A stretch of DNA of 31,032 bases from a virus (Duplodnaviria; Caudoviricetes): positions 1 to 31,032 of IMG/VR virus record IMGVR_UViG_3300044723_002287; one strand, written 5' to 3'. Of this stretch, positions 4,048 through 11,224 are shown piece after piece (position 1 is the stretch's first letter; each line of letters starts with the position of its first letter). The position numbers and the translations under genes were made by a program. The notes under the pieces were generated by a model that saw only the letters and a program-made list of their open reading frames with translations, was not told the origin of the DNA and searched no databases.

Positions 4048-5115
4048 GTGAACAAGAAGTTAATCAGCTTCAACCGGCAGCGAGGCATCCACATTGCGCA
4101 GCTCTACGTTGGTGGCAAGCGGATACGCAAGAAACTCGCTGATGCGGTAGAGTTTATTGGCATGAGCCCACAGGAGCGCTCTGTCATTCTATCTGACCGC
4201 CTGGAAGCACTACGCCTGGAGCTAGGGATTGAAAGCGAAGGTGGGATGGTCACGCTGAAGGCAGCCGTAGAGCGCTTTCTAGCGCACTGTGAAACCCGCA
4301 ACAGCCCTAGAACGGTCTACACCTATGGCGACAGTCTGAAGCGCTGGCAACAGGCCAATGGCAATCCTTGCCTGGAAGACTATCAGCGCAGTCAGCTTGA
4401 CCGCTACATTGCCCAAGAGCGGGCGCGTGGGCTGAATGACCGCACGATCAACCACCACATCCGCAACGTGAATCGCTTCTACAGTTGGGCTTTTGAGGAG
4501 GAGCTGATTACCAAGCCTGTCAAACTGAAGCAACTGCGGGCTGTCACCGTGGTACCGCAAACCTGGAGCCGTGAGCAGCTAGAACTGATGCGGCAGTACA
4601 TTGAACGGAAGCTGACAGAAACGGGCTCACGGCGCTTTCTGGTACTGCGTAAAGCGTTTTACTTGTTCCGCTACACAGGTATGCGGGCTAGCGAACTGAT
4701 CCACTTGAAGTGGGACCACATTCTGCCCCAGGGGATCTGGCTGGAAAGCACAGGCGATTGGCAAACGAAGGGTAGGCGTGATGCGATCCTGCCGGTGGCG
4801 AAACCGCTGCGGCAATTCCTGGACGCAGAAGGCCATGAAGGTGAGGTCTATGTCTGTGATGATGGGAGCGGTGGGAAGTTCTGGCGAGACTACAGCAGTG
4901 CAGGGCACAGCTTTCAAAAGATGCTGGATCAGCTAGGGTTGAAAGGGCCAAAGGTGCTGCACGGCTTTCGGGCTACCGTGGCGACAGAGTTACTAGCAGC
5001 GGGTGAGTCGCCGGTCCTGGTGCAGAAGCTACTCAGGCACCAGCAGTTGACTACCACGTTGGGCTATCTGAATGTGGGCGAGGTGGAGGTGCAGGAGCTG
5101 GTAAATAAACTGTAG
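4048..5115 (+). CDS. int: Tyrosine recombinase (phage integrase)
   Basis: Catalytic motifs YTGMRASEL (R), TKG (K), LHGFRAT (HxxR) and LLRH...TTLGY (H, Y); SAM-like core-binding domain; adjacent to the att core. Confidence 0.95.
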   Translation: MNKKLISFNRQRGIHIAQLYVGGKRIRKKLADAVEFIGMSPQERSVILSDRLEALRLELGIESEGGMVTLKAAVERFLAHCETRNSPRTVYTYGDSLKRWQQANGNPCLEDYQRSQLDRYIAQERARGLNDRTINHHIRNVNRFYSWAFEEELITKPVKLKQLRAVTVVPQTWSREQLELMRQYIERKLTETGSRRFLVLRKAFYLFRYTGMRASELIHLKWDHILPQGIWLESTGDWQTKGRRDAILPVAKPLRQFLDAEGHEGEVYVCDDGSGGKFWRDYSSAGHSFQKMLDQLGLKGPKVLHGFRATVATELLAAGESPVLVQKLLRHQQLTTTLGYLNVGEVEVQELVNKL

Positions 5116-5116
5116 C

Positions 5117-5317
5117 TGTTGTCAGTACATTGGCAACAAGTGTTGTTGTCAGTCTGGTGAGCCCAGACAATAAGCGGGCTAGTGGCTAGGCGATCATCTT
5201 ATTCATAATCGCAAGGTCGGGAGTTCAAGTCTCCCCTCTGCTACCAACAAATTCAGTGACTTACCGCTTCAATCAGCAGCCAAAACGTCACGATCCACAC
5301 TGGCAACATTGACAACA
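5117..5317. repeat. Candidate integrase arm-type sites TG(A/G)CAACA flanking the att core
   Basis: Five copies: reverse at 5117-5124 and 5144-5151, forward at 5131-5138, 5301-5308 and 5310-5317. Confidence 0.6.
5201..5246 (+). other. attP core: 3' half of a tRNA with CAT anticodon (Ile2 or Met)
   Basis: ATTCATAATCGCAAGGTCGGGAGTTCAAGTCTCCCCTCTGCTACCA gives anticodon loop, variable loop, T-arm (GGGAG-TTCAAGT-CTCCC), acceptor 3' strand and CCA. No matching 5' half is present. Confidence 0.85.
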
Positions 5318-5325
5318 AACAGGCA

Positions 5326-5484
5326 CTAAAAAAACCCAAAGCGTTTCTTGATCTCTTCGCCGGTTTCTTTGGCCTTACGAATGCGCTTGTAGGCAACAAC
5401 AGCCGGTATTGCCGCCCCCATCCCGGTGGCTGCCAGAATTAACTCTAGCCCGCCTGAATCTACAATCGCGTTAAATAGTTCCAT
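5326..5484 (-). CDS. Small membrane protein of the lysis cassette (52 aa; not in ORF track)
   Basis: MELFNAIVDSGGLELILAATGMGAAIPAVVAYKRIRKAKETGEEIKKRFGFF; TGATG coupling to the endolysin; hydrophobic segment followed by a basic tail. Confidence 0.65.
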   Translation of the reverse strand: MELFNAIVDSGGLELILAATGMGAAIPAVVAYKRIRKAKETGEEIKKRFGFF

Positions 5485-5894
5485 CAGTACGTCCAGATAG
5501 CAGGATTGGTGCGGTCATCCAAGTGGCAGAAGCGCTGGTCCCAGTCAGACTTTTGAGATAACCCAACACCTGAAAAATACTTGAGCGCCAATCGTAAAAA
5601 CTCAACGGCATCGGCACCCGCAATCAAAACATCTACAGCCCTGCCACGGGCGTGCATACCACCACGCGGTAGCGGGTTGCCGAGATGGTCATACTTTAGT
5701 GGCTTGGTGCGTTCACGTGGGTGATCTTCTGTCCTATAAGCGCTGCTGAGACGCATGGGGCGGCCCCACTCTTCTCGCAGCTCTTCCAGCTTTTCCATGA
5801 AAAAGGCGTCCATCAGCACAGGCGCATCAGGGGCAAAGCTGCATTTCAACTCATCGCGGCTGAAGTGCTTACTGCTTTCGACGGTGTCGCTCAT
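5484..5894 (-). CDS. Endolysin, peptidase M15A-type zinc peptidase
   Basis: HFSRDELKC, LEELRE..GRPMRLSSAYR, H..GRAVD and FCHLDDR motifs; AAGGAG upstream of ATG 5894. Confidence 0.88.
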   Translation of the reverse strand: MSDTVESSKHFSRDELKCSFAPDAPVLMDAFFMEKLEELREEWGRPMRLSSAYRTEDHPRERTKPLKYDHLGNPLPRGGMHARGRAVDVLIAGADAVEFLRLALKYFSGVGLSQKSDWDQRFCHLDDRTNPAIWTY

Positions 5895-6202
5895 AACGTA
5901 ATCTCTCCTTTGCCGCATTGGTTCGCATAAATTTCACCAGCTCGTTTGCGCTCCTCAGAAGTCAACTGGATCACCGCATCAAACGGGTAGTCTGTTCGAA
6001 ACTTGTCGATCACACAGCTACAACCTTGAACTGCCCAATTCATGGCAAAATGCCGTGGCATCCCCTGGGCTTCAAACTGTGGGGCCATGATCTGTGCGCA
6101 GCCCGTCACCCACTGCCAAATAAAACTGGTCTTGTAATCCAGCTCGGCAGGCTCTGCCGCATAAACGGTGGCGGGGAGTAGCAGGGCGAGTAGGGCTTTC
6201 AT
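5891..6202 (-). CDS. Secreted Cys-containing protein in the lysis cassette
   Basis: Signal-peptide-like N-terminus MKALLALLLPATVYA; C...CSC...C pattern. Confidence 0.6.
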   Translation of the reverse strand: MKALLALLLPATVYAAEPAELDYKTSFIWQWVTGCAQIMAPQFEAQGMPRHFAMNWAVQGCSCVIDKFRTDYPFDAVIQLTSEERKRAGEIYANQCGKGEITL

Positions 6203-6498
6203 TTTTTTTGATCCAGTACAATTTGCCGCAACAGCGTAGTTTGCTCGGTCAGCACTGATTTGAGGTCACCTAGAATCTTGTTGGAATCCGCCATGATTGA
6301 TCGCAACGCAGCATCGCTGTCAGAATCCTTCTGCATCCAGGCGAGACGCTCCTCCTTGTGCATCTCATCGGCCTTGGTGCGCTCATCGCGGTGAGATTTG
6401 GTAATCCACTGAATATAGTAAAAAGCCGCCAGAAGCGTCACTACGTTCACGCCTAGCGTGTTTACCATATCAATAAGGGTGTTTGCTTCTGCTGGCAT
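6199..6498 (-). CDS. Holin-like protein (one N-terminal TM segment plus coiled coil)
   Basis: LGVNVVTLLAAFYYIQWI hydrophobic segment then a charged helix; first gene of the lysis cassette. Confidence 0.6.
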   Translation of the reverse strand: MPAEANTLIDMVNTLGVNVVTLLAAFYYIQWITKSHRDERTKADEMHKEERLAWMQKDSDSDAALRSIMADSNKILGDLKSVLTEQTTLLRQIVLDQKK

Positions 6499-6511: not shown

Positions 6512-7801
6512 TTAAGTGGTTAAAGCTGACTCGACTTCAGCTTGAGTGAACCCTAAACGAAACAGTTTACAGTTAGGGTCTTCTTGCAGTTCTTGCTGGT
6601 ATTTAATGGTAACACCATCTAAATCGGTTTCGGTTCTAACTCGGTGAGTTGCGTCTGTAATCCCTGCATCTTCTGGCGCTAAGTCTGCTGTTTTAAACCA
6701 GTTCAGTCTAGTGTCTAAGAGCGCTTGGTACTGAGTCTGCCAACCGGACAGGTTTTGATTTTTAATGTATTCGTAGTCGAATTTAGTGTTTAGGTGTTTG
6801 GGAATCCCTCGCATACCGATAGTCTCCTTGAGTTTAGTGATTTCTAGGGTTTGCAATAAATGATAAGTGTTTGCCCAACTCGCCCAACCTTCATACGATG
6901 CTAGTGTTGAACGAAATCGAATGCTACTACAAGCAGGCCAGTTCTTTTTGAGCTCACTGATCCTTTGAATCATTTGTTTTGCTGTTGATTTTCGTAACAG
7001 TTTCTTTGTAGGGAAATGGCGATAACCAACAAAATCAACGCCTGTCTCGACAGGCTTTAGCGACCACCTGCTAATTTCTAGTTTTAGTGATCTCTTTAAA
7101 AAATCTACAATATTTACACGAACAAACTGCAACCATTCCTTGCTATCGCCAAATATTAAAAAATCATCAACGTAACGGCAATATCCTTTGATTCTATATT
7201 TGTGTTTTAAGTATTGGTCTAATTCATTTAAGTATAAATTGCCAAACCATTGGCTTGTGTAATTCCCTATTGGGCAGCCTTCGGCACTACTGATGATTTC
7301 TTTAATTAGCATTAAAGTGCGTTTGCATTTTATCTTTTGCTGAACAACAGAAAATAAAATCTGATGGTCAACACTCGGATAAAACTTCCGAATATCCATT
7401 TGCAAACAGTATTTATATTTTTGCACACAGCTCTGAGCATAGTTGCTGGCTCGGTGAAGTCCTAATTGTTTACGACAAGCAAAACTTTGCGCTAATAAAA
7501 CCCTGTCCCAGATTGGCTCAAGGATCTGGATAATAGCGTGTTGGACGATTCTGTCAGGAGCAAATGGAAGCACATAAATTATTCTGCGTTTTGGTTTTAG
7601 AATCTCTTTTATACGGTATTGGCTGGTCTGGTACTTACCATCTACTAATTGCTTGCGGATTTCCGCCAATCCTACTTCGCTACGATTGTCAAATTCTTGG
7701 ACTACTCGCTGCCAAGACTTACCTTTTCTTGCGTTACGATAGGCAAGATTTAAATTGTCAGCAGACACAATCTGCTCAAAAAGATTCCCGTGACGTTTCA
7801 T
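6512..7801 (-). CDS. DGR reverse transcriptase with a 100-aa C-terminal extension
   Basis: RT motifs PKRRII..PF.PDRIVQHAI, SFACRK..G.H, LQMDIRKFYPSVDH, PIGNYTSQWFGNLYL (DGR-type SQ), RYVDDF and VDFVGY; adjacent to the TR. Confidence 0.96.
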   Translation of the reverse strand: MKRHGNLFEQIVSADNLNLAYRNARKGKSWQRVVQEFDNRSEVGLAEIRKQLVDGKYQTSQYRIKEILKPKRRIIYVLPFAPDRIVQHAIIQILEPIWDRVLLAQSFACRKQLGLHRASNYAQSCVQKYKYCLQMDIRKFYPSVDHQILFSVVQQKIKCKRTLMLIKEIISSAEGCPIGNYTSQWFGNLYLNELDQYLKHKYRIKGYCRYVDDFLIFGDSKEWLQFVRVNIVDFLKRSLKLEISRWSLKPVETGVDFVGYRHFPTKKLLRKSTAKQMIQRISELKKNWPACSSIRFRSTLASYEGWASWANTYHLLQTLEITKLKETIGMRGIPKHLNTKFDYEYIKNQNLSGWQTQYQALLDTRLNWFKTADLAPEDAGITDATHRVRTETDLDGVTIKYQQELQEDPNCKLFRLGFTQAEVESALTT

Positions 7802-7908
7802 TTTCTAGAGAGATGTCCTTCGCTCTCACTACCAAACACCTCTCCCACCGTTGTGTATTTTGGCAAAAGCCAAGGTGAGCCAGCCAGCCAGTGGTGTTGT
7901 GGCCCTCT
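7802..7908 (-). ncRNA. DGR spacer RNA between TR and RT
   Basis: Hairpin TTGGC-TTTT-GCCAA (7860-7873) and an 11-bp stem with G-U pairs 7834-7844/7808-7818. The position matches the structured 3' spacer of DGR RNAs. Confidence 0.6.
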
Positions 7909-8023
7909 CACTGTCTCTGCGTGACCCGATGTTGTCGTTGAGATTCAAAGGTGAATTATTCCAATTGACACTACGTGACCTGCATTTCGTGCCATTGTTC
8001 CAATTGCTGCCCACGATCCCGTG
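7909..8023 (-). repeat. DGR template repeat (TR)
   Basis: 115-nt ungapped match to 8083-8197 (offset 174); 23 of 24 mismatches at coding-strand adenines; nine AAY codons in the VR frame. Confidence 0.97.
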
Positions 8024-8068
8024 CTGTAACAACGGTACTGCCTCACCCTCCCAGAGGGACTTTTAAAA

Positions 8069-9247
8069 TTAGTACAGACTTCCACTAACTCCGCGCGACC
8101 CGACGAAGCCGCTGAGATTCAAAGGCGAATTATTCCAAAAGACACCACGCGACCCGCATTCCGCGCCACCGCTCCAACTGCCGCCCACGACCCCGCGATT
8201 TGGGACTGCGTATCCCTGACCCCGACCGATAGAATTAACCCCATCGTATGTCGTTCCATCGGAGGCGGTGTCTTGAACTGCATAACTAGCTGCACCACCG
8301 TCAGAGCCTGTTTCATTCACCCATTGCCACAATGCTCCTGCACAATCCTCGCAGCCGATATTTGAGATCATTCTCCGACTAGCTGTGTCACTATGCCCTC
8401 CAGTCGTCCCAGGGTCTGCTGATCCGCTGATATTGGTTTCTTGATTGCTGCCAATAGCTAGAGCCATAAACTCTGCTTGCGTCGGAAGTCGCTTCTCAAT
8501 TTCCGCAAATCGTTCCACAAAATTATACCAGTGATAATCGGGGTTGCTTGCCCCATCAACGATGGTTCCACCGTAACTGCTTTCCAGCGTTGTCGTATTA
8601 CTGGCTAGATAAATATCTGCCCAAAGTTTGTTCCCGACATAAACCATCCCCTCAGGATTTGCCGTTGGACGATGTTGCGCTTGTGTCCAAACACTTCTAG
8701 GTAGAATATCCCCATCCAAGTAACCTGTGAGGGAGTGTCCGCTAATCGTTCCGACATCAACACAGAGGCAGTGGAATCCGCCAATTTTGCGAGAGTTTGT
8801 GGCACTGGCTGTCACACCACCAACGGTTCCATCAGGATAGGTAGAATTGGGGCTTAAACAGAAATTGGGAGTAGTTCCCGAACTAGGTTCTACTGCAAAA
8901 ATATAGACATCCTCGCCATTGCGGTTTGCTGCTGTGGCCTTTGAGGTTTCATTACTGGCCCACGAGCCTGTTGTGTCTGCATCCAGTGTGGTTGCCGCAG
9001 AAAGTGTGTAAACAGTGGCGTTGATTCGTAGTTGCATTGCTGGAATATTGACTGTCCGCCTTTCTGAAGCTGTAGCAGAACCAGCATAAAATCCGGCACT
9101 GGCATCATTGCCCCCTGTGATTTGCTGCTCGGCTAGATACCAGTTGGGGATTGTAGGCGGAACGGCCTGAACCGAACCTCCAAAACTGATAAGGCCACCG
9201 GATTCAGTTGCCAAAGTCACACTGTTTAGTTGAATCTCTCCTGCCAT
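8069..9247 (-). CDS. mtd: Mtd-like receptor-binding protein (C-type lectin fold), DGR target
   Basis: Shares SRKIGGFH, P.GM....WADIYL, WYNF.E......KRLP...EF.ALA.G, G.LW.W and GG.W......GSR...W motifs with Bordetella phage BPP-1 Mtd as recalled; VR at the C-terminus. Confidence 0.9.
   Translation of the reverse strand: MAGEIQLNSVTLATESGGLISFGGSVQAVPPTIPNWYLAEQQITGGNDASAGFYAGSATASERRTVNIPAMQLRINATVYTLSAATTLDADTTGSWASNETSKATAANRNGEDVYIFAVEPSSGTTPNFCLSPNSTYPDGTVGGVTASATNSRKIGGFHCLCVDVGTISGHSLTGYLDGDILPRSVWTQAQHRPTANPEGMVYVGNKLWADIYLASNTTTLESSYGGTIVDGASNPDYHWYNFVERFAEIEKRLPTQAEFMALAIGSNQETNISGSADPGTTGGHSDTASRRMISNIGCEDCAGALWQWVNETGSDGGAASYAVQDTASDGTTYDGVNSIGRGQGYAVPNRGVVGGSWSGGAECGSRGVFWNNSPLNLSGFVGSRGVSGSLY
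8083..8197 (-). repeat. DGR variable repeat (VR)
   Basis: Encodes RGVVGGSWSGGAECGSRGVFWNNSPLNLSGFVGSRGVS; the TR equivalent reads HGIVGSNWNNGTKCRSRSVNWNNSPLNLNDNIGSRRDS. Confidence 0.97.
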
Positions 9248-11224
9248 TTAGTGTCTCACTGAAAGGGTTCCTGTTATGTTTGCTGTGCCTGTTAAATTAA
9301 AAGGGCCATCTATAGAAACAAGTTTGCCTTGAATCGTCAGAGTCCCACTAAACGTGGTGTCTCCCATGTAGAGTCGGTTATTACCGGATGCTACGGTGAT
9401 GCTGTCACTGATACTATTGGCGTGTTCAAACGCATTCGCTACTCCTGCCGTAAATACCTGGCTTTGCGTGACCCACTCTACGTCGGTGCCACCGGAATTC
9501 AGCGCCAGAACTTTGCTGCCGTTGCCGTTGTAGCTGGGTAACAGGTTCCCGCGTGCCACGCTGGCCGTACTTGCGCCGGTGCCGCCGTCTGCTATGGCGA
9601 GATCAGTAATGCCGGTCACAGAGCCACCTGTGATGCTGACGCTGTTGGAATCTTGTGTGGCAATACTCCCCAGCCCTAGACTCGTGCGGGCCGTAGCCCC
9701 TGATTCAGCGACCCAAGCGGTACCGTTGCCGACAATGAAGTTGCCATCCGTAACGGCAAGAGCTGCGATCTCACCCAGCCCAGCATCGTAGGCTTGCACC
9801 GTGCTGTTGATGTCGCTGTCTACCACCACGTTGCTACCACCGTTCTGAAGCGTGCCGGTGAAGTTGGCGGTAGTGTCTCCATAGTCGGCATTGGTAGCGC
9901 TGTAGGCTTCAACGGTAGAACCAATATCAGAATCGACCACCACGTTGCTGCCCCCGTTCTGAAGCGTGCCGGTGAAGTTGGCAGTAGTGTCATCGTACTT
10001 GGCAGTGTCTGCGTCAAAGGCTTGAATGTCGGTGCCTGGCACCAGCGATAACGTGGCTTGAATCGTGGCCGCATCCGCATCATCTAGGATCGTCCTGGCA
10101 AAAGCGGTGAGGTCCGTGACGGCGTAGGTGTCGCTAGCCGTCGTGTAGATCATCTTGTTAGCAGCCGTGGTGAGCCCGCTGATCGACTGTAGACCGGCAT
10201 CATAGGCTTGAACATCACTGCCCAAGGTGACGCCTAACAGCGTTCTGGCTTCACTGGCTGAAGTCCCGCCGGTACCGCCCAACGAAATCGGCACTGTGCC
10301 TGCGGTGATGACCTGGTTGGAGATGGTCAGGTAGTTGTCGGTGACGGTGGCGAGGCTGGTGGTCACGGGCTCAAAGCCTGTGCCGGTGACGTAGTATTTC
10401 AGGATGTTGTTGGCGGTGTCGTACCAGAGGTCACCATTGCCCGGGGTGTCGCTGTACGGATTGGTTGCGCCGGTCTTGAACTGACCTTCGAAACTGGCTA
10501 GGGCGGCTTCTGCTCCAGTCTGTGCCGTTTCTGCGTCTGTCTTGGCCGTCTCTGCAGCAACCTTCAGCGTGCGCACGGTGGCGACATCTACCAGCAGTTC
10601 AAAGTAGCTGGTGTTGGTCAGCAGCGTGCCACTCGGAGCATCCTGCTTGGTGAAGTAAACGTTGTCGTTACTGGAGTCGCGGATCAGGTCACGCACCACA
10701 TAAGCCGCTGTGGTGGTCGTGGCGTCGCTCCCCTTGAACGTGCCGATTTCCTGCGTGGTCACAAAGGCGCCAGTGCTGTCAAAGGCGAGGAGCTTGCCTG
10801 CCAGATCGGCGGTGCCTGCCGCGAGTTTCAAACTGGTAGTGTCCACCTCGCTGACCGTCTCTTCAAAGCCTATCGACTTTTCAATCTTTACGTCGAGCTG
10901 CTGGCACATCATCGTCAATTTATCGAACGCCTTTTCCAGCGTTTCTGCGTCCAGCGCGTCGTTGTTGACGTAGTCGATGGCCTGCAGGTAATCCGTTTCC
11001 CGCTTGATCGTCACCAGCGTCTCTTGAGCAGGCGCACTCAGGAAGGTGACGGTACCCGTAGCGCCTGGATCGGTCAGCGTGAAATGCGTGGTGCGGGTCT
11101 GCTCGGTGGTGTCTAGGAAGACCTTGACCTGATCTAGTTCAGTGTATGGGAAGTTGACGGTAAACGCAGTCGTGCTGCCGTCACCGCCAAACTGAACTTG
11201 GTTTCGTTTTACGCTGACAGTCAT
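9248..11224 (-). CDS. Tail fibre protein (T7 gp17-like N-terminal anchor)
   Basis: GDGSTTAFTVNFPY...VTIKRET...AETLEKAFDKLTM N-terminal domain; Thr/Gly/Ala-rich body with GGTG.STAS.AR-type and VQAYDA repeats. Confidence 0.88.
   Translation of the reverse strand: MTVSVKRNQVQFGGDGSTTAFTVNFPYTELDQVKVFLDTTEQTRTTHFTLTDPGATGTVTFLSAPAQETLVTIKRETDYLQAIDYVNNDALDAETLEKAFDKLTMMCQQLDVKIEKSIGFEETVSEVDTTSLKLAAGTADLAGKLLAFDSTGAFVTTQEIGTFKGSDATTTTAAYVVRDLIRDSSNDNVYFTKQDAPSGTLLTNTSYFELLVDVATVRTLKVAAETAKTDAETAQTGAEAALASFEGQFKTGATNPYSDTPGNGDLWYDTANNILKYYVTGTGFEPVTTSLATVTDNYLTISNQVITAGTVPISLGGTGGTSASEARTLLGVTLGSDVQAYDAGLQSISGLTTAANKMIYTTASDTYAVTDLTAFARTILDDADAATIQATLSLVPGTDIQAFDADTAKYDDTTANFTGTLQNGGSNVVVDSDIGSTVEAYSATNADYGDTTANFTGTLQNGGSNVVVDSDINSTVQAYDAGLGEIAALAVTDGNFIVGNGTAWVAESGATARTSLGLGSIATQDSNSVSITGGSVTGITDLAIADGGTGASTASVARGNLLPSYNGNGSKVLALNSGGTDVEWVTQSQVFTAGVANAFEHANSISDSITVASGNNRLYMGDTTFSGTLTIQGKLVSIDGPFNLTGTANITGTLSVRH
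9822..9991. repeat. Intragenic direct repeat in the tail fibre (56 nt twice, 114-nt period)
   Basis: 9822-9877 vs 9936-9991 with three mismatches; the peptide DTTANFTGTLQNGGSNVVVDSDI occurs twice. Confidence 0.9.

Follow-up and report, generated by a model that had tools for sequence, protein, structure and literature searches.

Organization of the locus

We analyzed a 31,032-nucleotide (nt) stretch of DNA (hereafter the window), positions 1 to 31,032 of the IMG/VR record IMGVR_UViG_3300044723_002287, which derives from a tailed phage described as an estuary phage; the 31-kb record is about 78% complete. The window harbors a diversity-generating retroelement (DGR), with a template repeat (TR), a variable repeat (VR), a DGR-type reverse transcriptase (RT) and a target gene that ends in the VR. 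Here we focus on a module of 100 amino acids (aa) that continues this RT in frame. The element is composed of the following parts:

8069..9247 (-): Mtd-like DGR target, 392 aa, matching PF21916 (mtd_2nd) and phrog_11262 (tail)
8083..8195 (-): VR, 3'-terminal in the target gene, with 22/23 differences at TR adenines
7909..8021 (-): TR, with 35 adenines
7802..7908 (-): TR-RT spacer, in which a hairpin is predicted, with a weak RT-17 Rfam match below gathering score
6815..7801 (-): DGR RT, 329 aa, YVDD motif, in frame with the module
6824..6829 (-): Shine-Dalgarno (SD) sequence AAGGAG for the internal ATG, written in Lys-Glu codons of the RT
6512..6814 (-): 100-aa module, acidic, helix-helix-three strands-helix-helix, which probably helps the Mtd-like target to assemble or acts as its partner

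Over residues 148-375, the target is 33% identical to Mtd of BPP-1, and its VR is C-terminal, as in the Mtd/C-type-lectin (CLec) type.

The RT is fused in frame to a module with its own start site

As claimed in a preliminary description of this DNA, RT and module share one stop-free open reading frame (ORF; 6512-7801, minus strand) of 429 aa, in which the RT occupies residues 1-329 and the module begins at Met330 (ATG at 6814). RVT_1 (PF00078) matches residues 71-260, and phrog_1423 residues 1-347. The module was also said to possess an ATG and an SD site of its own, and AAGGAG (6824-6829) is indeed located 9 nt 5' of this ATG. The anti-SD pairing of the internal site (-8.5 kcal/mol) is equalled by 3/106 other internal in-frame ATGs within the 12 long ORFs of the window, and a stronger SD was found at 1/12 gene starts of these ORFs. 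A weak hairpin is predicted over the internal SD (mean unpaired probability 0.40). One contig of the RNA run X16 covers the RT, although contigs cannot show transcription.

The fusion might represent a recent stop-codon loss unique to the window or an assembly error, and most of its close fused relatives do have RTs that are 99% identical. However, the same fusion was present in 11/20 viral loci of our first scan, which argues against an assembly error, and no indel or stop at the junction was detected among the variants listed for the contigs of four public runs. Furthermore, the junction is shared with P0035, P0036 and P0049, whose RTs are 79, 73 and 50% identical to that of the window, and a recent loss of the stop is thereby refuted. 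A unique or artefactual fusion is thus almost certainly not the explanation. While the recency proposed in the preliminary description has to be abandoned, the loss of a stop or a gene overlap is still the likely origin of the fusion.

The module family is linked to the Mtd-like target

The module belongs to a large and unnamed family of 530 clusters at 50% identity (E ≤ 0.001); Pfam (E ≤ 1) and PHROG searches with the module returned no family. Six members longer than 250 aa were found among the 150/530 matches listed, all of them RT fusions, and five longer matches from a further search were RT fusions as well. The structural model of the module (predicted local distance difference test score, pLDDT, 92) consists of two helices, three strands and two helices, and comparison with the PDB, including the solved N-terminal domain folds of Tfa proteins, revealed no clear match.

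In a scan centred on the target, 60/80 returned loci were new and distant, and we counted the 41 that extended 2.3 kb or more downstream. The module was found in 40 of these loci, an RT in 33 and a gene with an oligonucleotide/oligosaccharide-binding (OB) fold in 22, while one locus was fused; among the RT-less loci, 7/8 kept the module. We prefer this count, because the scan avoids selecting on the module. The module-centred scan showed the target in 118/119 loci, a biased count since short loci were included only when the target was seen (29/148 dropped). Dereplication of these 119/148 loci resulted in 46 lineages, of which 22 have the order target-TR-RT-OB gene with a free module. The remaining lineages comprise 18 without an RT seen (for a few, it may lie past the contig end), three direct fusions, two RT-OB-module triple fusions and one with avd.

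We also compared divergence across 33 dereplicated loci containing all four genes. The partial rho between module and target given the RT was 0.31 (0/500 permutations as high), that between module and RT given the target was -0.04, and that between OB gene and RT given the target was 0.63. Five OB-centred loci weigh against a strict pairing, as they carry the target without a module match, but one of them, L162, later gave the module core. Overall, the module family follows the Mtd-like DGR target rather than the RT. Since the module is linked to the variable tail protein and not to the RT, it is likely a tail-assembly helper and not a replacement for the accessory protein Avd.

Such a replacement had been suggested in the preliminary description. 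In its favour, profile searches of the 31-kb window record gave no match for either bAvd or the OB-fold accessory gene, and the module is the sole small gene adjoining the RT in both the window clade and its unfused sister clade. The absence of a visible RT from 18/46 module-centred lineages (with the few contig-end cases mentioned above) and the coexistence of module and avd in L064/L065 speak against it. The module does not match the Avd profile PF22296 and is acidic, with an isoelectric point (pI) of 5.0 in the window and a family median of 4.8 (n = 137), whereas the accessible part of Wu et al. 2018 (PMC5758913) gives about 9.5 for Avd. Moreover, it shows no co-divergence with the RT, which is tracked instead by the basic OB gene found beside the module. 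Taken together, we regard it as very improbable that the module stands in for Avd as accessory factor of the DGR.

The same study describes Avd-less DGRs of Architecture A, which, like the window, consist of a core of TR and RT in which an accessory gene has not been recognised (PMC5758913), and the words "fused" and "fusion" are absent from the main text. The CH1 proteins reported there measure 160-169 aa, compared to the 100 aa of the module, and the PAG1-4 rows shown in the supplement bear, by eye, no resemblance to it. Our literature search retrieved no report of the module or of an RT-module fusion among the matches listed, with most subscription papers outside its reach.

An OB-fold gene as candidate Avd stand-in

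A better candidate for the Avd stand-in of this RT lineage is the basic OB-fold gene, which the window phage appears to have lost. In relatives, this gene encodes 98 aa and separates the RT from the module; the possibility that it is Avd was considered and rejected, and its fold is an OB fold. An OB-centred scan found an RT upstream in 76/77 new loci (L150-L226), which include several target types, and 26/77 loci had neither a target-family nor a module match. The absence of Avd in the OB- and target-centred scans refers to single-sequence queries; a test with the bAvd profile gave matches in 2/49 records, one of them above the cut-off. The OB profile does not include the upstream ORF of L067, because this ORF is the TR frame. 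The OB gene and the module encode different proteins: the former basic, with an OB fold and located behind the RT, the latter an alpha/beta fold in its model and acidic. The likeness of the OB gene to PAG1 was judged by eye only.

The OB-fold gene was also found in the archaeal virus vir525, BK063673. In L186, L192, L199, L200 and L220, which contain another target family, other small unnamed genes lie behind the OB gene, three of them matching phrog_11557.

A probable Tfa-type role of the module

In ten longer relatives, the two conserved ends of the module form the N-terminus (hhalign probability 99.7 to the family). DUF4376 lies C-terminal to the module core in 4/10 above the Pfam cut-off and in two more just below it, and three such long relatives matched phrog_2837 (tail) or phrog_1807 (tail-fibre). 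According to the accessible text of PMC7882524, Tfa proteins combine a variable N-terminal fibre-binding domain with a DUF4376 C-terminus; in the DUF4376 proteins found here, the module core takes the N-terminal position. Tfa chaperones (DUF4376/PF14301; phage Mu gpU, Alteromonas V22 gp27, A5 gp9, CJIE1) are encoded downstream of a receptor-binding gene, as is the module, which adjoins this gene and is co-inherited with it. In contrast to Tfa proteins, the module of the window lacks DUF4376, contains an extra beta-hairpin, has no clear match among solved folds and is paired with a C-type-lectin Mtd-like protein. Linkage and domain position therefore lead us to infer that the module serves the Mtd-like protein in a Tfa-type role. 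The module likely works like a Tfa chaperone, whereas its membership in the Tfa family is not established. Gene neighbourhood, co-divergence and the DUF4376 fusions thus support the earlier idea of a tail-associated protein.

Alternatively, the module could be a permanent structural adaptor or cap at the tail tip instead of a transient chaperone, with the fusion still being incidental. The same target-linkage data would fit this role, and PMC10579305, in which two Alteromonas fibre chaperones are labelled DUF4376, reports that TfaMu remains on the fibre and suggests that DUF4376 chaperones act as caps. The loss of the module in a few target-bearing loci suits an accessory role better, and we consider a permanent cap unlikely.

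Comparison with BPP-1 and Bbp4

BPP-1 and the window have in common an Mtd-like target, TR and VR, an RT and a small gene that overlaps the end of the RT gene, precedes the lysis genes and remains beside mtd in the absence of an RT. In BPP-1, the order is mtd-avd-TR-brt-bbp4, with bbp4 (NP_958674.1) in the slot of the module, overlapping the end of brt, and with avd present. The window differs in lacking avd and in the fusion of RT and small gene. In the 81 Bbp4 rows we collected (BPP-1 counted twice), 64 carry an RT and 55 avd, and none is fused (0/64 of the RT-bearing rows); in RT-less rows, bbp4 directly follows mtd.

Module and Bbp4 share similar end motifs. Their hhalign comparison yielded a local probability of 20% and a global score of 20.4, compared to a mean of 3.1 and a maximum of 10.9 for shuffles, and the hidden Markov model of the module had no match in the 81 Bbp4 rows. 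Homology between the two proteins is suggestive only, and an attempt to bridge them via short relatives did not strengthen it. The name "bbp4" was not found in BPP-1 papers among the 20 of 119 matches listed. In the RT-less phages L018, L253, L254 and L258, two to three tandem Mtd-like genes were observed beside a single module or bbp4 gene.

Apparent DGR activity without Avd or OB gene in cis

TR and VR of the window differ at 23 positions, 22 of which are TR adenines. Fifteen fused-RT loci with a TR within 2 nt of that of the window contain 11 distinct VRs, in which 18-28 of 21-30 differences fall on TR adenines, and unfused OB-less loci had A-specific TR/VR pairs in all cases tested (5/5). 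This A-specific diversity suggests that the clade retrohomes in the absence of both Avd and OB gene in cis; host or co-infecting phages may provide help in trans.

In 12 loci of close relatives without TR and RT (L010-L017, L083-L096), the VR still differs from the TR of the window mainly at adenines, which account for 18-25 of the 23-40 differences, and one run (X12) contained both DGR-plus and DGR-minus alleles (joint at 6815-8061). Together, these observations suggest that VRs have been exchanged through recombination or that a DGR has acted in trans. In L001-L016, the RTs are 99% identical to that of the window, compared to 85-99% for the targets and 91-100% for the modules. This contrast between near-identical RTs and divergent flanks indicates that the TR-RT cassette has recently swept through the phage population.

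Origin of the fusion and retention of the free start

The 11 fused RTs require five changes on the RT trees, at least three of which are forced, and a single origin of the fusion was rejected by the approximately unbiased (AU) test (p-AU 0.00023); both trees are quick trees, and the AU test was made after a first look at the tree. Where the RT abuts the module without an OB gene, four clusters are fused and seven are free. All free clusters (7/7) are in one shifted frame, and five of them show a TAATG/ATGA overlap of RT stop and module ATG. Four free RTs are the likely sister group of the window clade (Shimodaira-Hasegawa-like approximate likelihood-ratio test, SH-aLRT, 88), which suggests that the loss of the OB gene probably preceded the fusion. 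With 4/11 clusters fused, the share is near the one third that reading frame by itself would predict, bearing in mind that clusters are not independent. Judged from these comparisons, the fusion is old, recurrent and optional.

All 11 fused proteins retrieved have a methionine at the junction, and so do the fused loci. In L081, L096, P0006 and P0008, the RT has been deleted, whereas its SD-bearing tail, the ATG and the module have been kept. The retention of methionine, SD and module fits selection on the free module and provides indirect support for the earlier proposal that one ORF yields both a fusion and a free module. One clade carries an in-frame RT-OB-module triple fusion of 546-547 aa (L040:2949-4589, L047:3672-5315, P0041), in which the module methionine is kept.

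The fusion itself could also have been selected, with the module tethering the RT either to the virion or to the nascent target, and through the latter to the target transcript and locus, and thereby raising retrohoming after the loss of Avd and OB gene. In line with this idea, direct fusions arose independently at least three times (five on the tree), always in OB-less loci where the DNA was seen, the triple fusion exists, and the fusion has persisted for long with active VRs. On the other hand, 7/11 OB-less abutting clusters are unfused, and five tested among them have A-specific VRs. Frame alone would nearly account for the fused share, no RT-bearing Bbp4 row is fused, and, with regard to a virion tether, fusion is a minority state. 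We consider a selected tether rather doubtful. The same doubt applies to the broader scenario, in which a DGR lineage without Avd and OB helper would repeatedly graft the chaperone of its target onto the RT, producing a free chaperone together with an RT that, tethered to the nascent target or to the tip of the virion, steers mutagenesis to the correct gene.

Genomic context

Further features flank the element:

9248..11224 (-): tail fibre with T7-type N-terminal domain
5484..6498 (-): lysis-type genes downstream, namely a 99-aa holin-like ORF, a 103-aa ORF and a peptidase M15 endolysin

The holin-like label of the 99-aa ORF is inferred, as this ORF had no family match. The RT-17 Rfam match (7793-7877, minus strand; 25 bits compared to a gathering score of 40.4) covers the hairpin just 5' of the RT start. 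Behind the VR, where the initiation of mutagenic homology (IMH/IMH*) and a stem-loop would be expected, the predicted hairpins are small (region z-score 0.35). Read by eye, a stretch at 5200-5246 (plus strand) resembles the 3' half of a tRNA; ARAGORN and Rfam reported no tRNA there. As it adjoins a tyrosine integrase gene (4048-5115), it is likely an attP site, indicating a temperate podovirus.

Proposed role of the module and implications

We conclude that the module is probably a Tfa-type partner of the Mtd-like target and that its own SD and ATG probably direct its translation, mainly as a free protein. Its fusion to the RT would be a tolerated accident of gene packing. Starting from an ancestral order target-TR-RT-OB gene-module, the OB gene would have been lost first. 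The RT end would then have come to overlap the ribosome-binding site of the module, with TAATG/ATGA coupling, before a small indel brought both genes into one frame. The free module may bind the nascent Mtd-like protein and aid its folding, trimerisation or fibre attachment, while the RT would work with a passenger at its C-terminus and without Avd or OB protein in cis.

These findings propose a likely function for an unnamed protein family, as assembly partner of Mtd-like DGR targets, and give bbp4 of BPP-1 a testable role. They also caution against taking any small domain fused to an Avd-less RT for its helper, and imply that a DGR RT likely tolerates a C-terminal passenger of 100 aa. Finally, they reveal a clade whose DGRs appear to be active in the absence of Avd and of the OB-fold candidate in cis, and in which Avd-independent retrohoming becomes testable with a minimal pair of TR and RT; such a pair would be a simpler tool for directed evolution.
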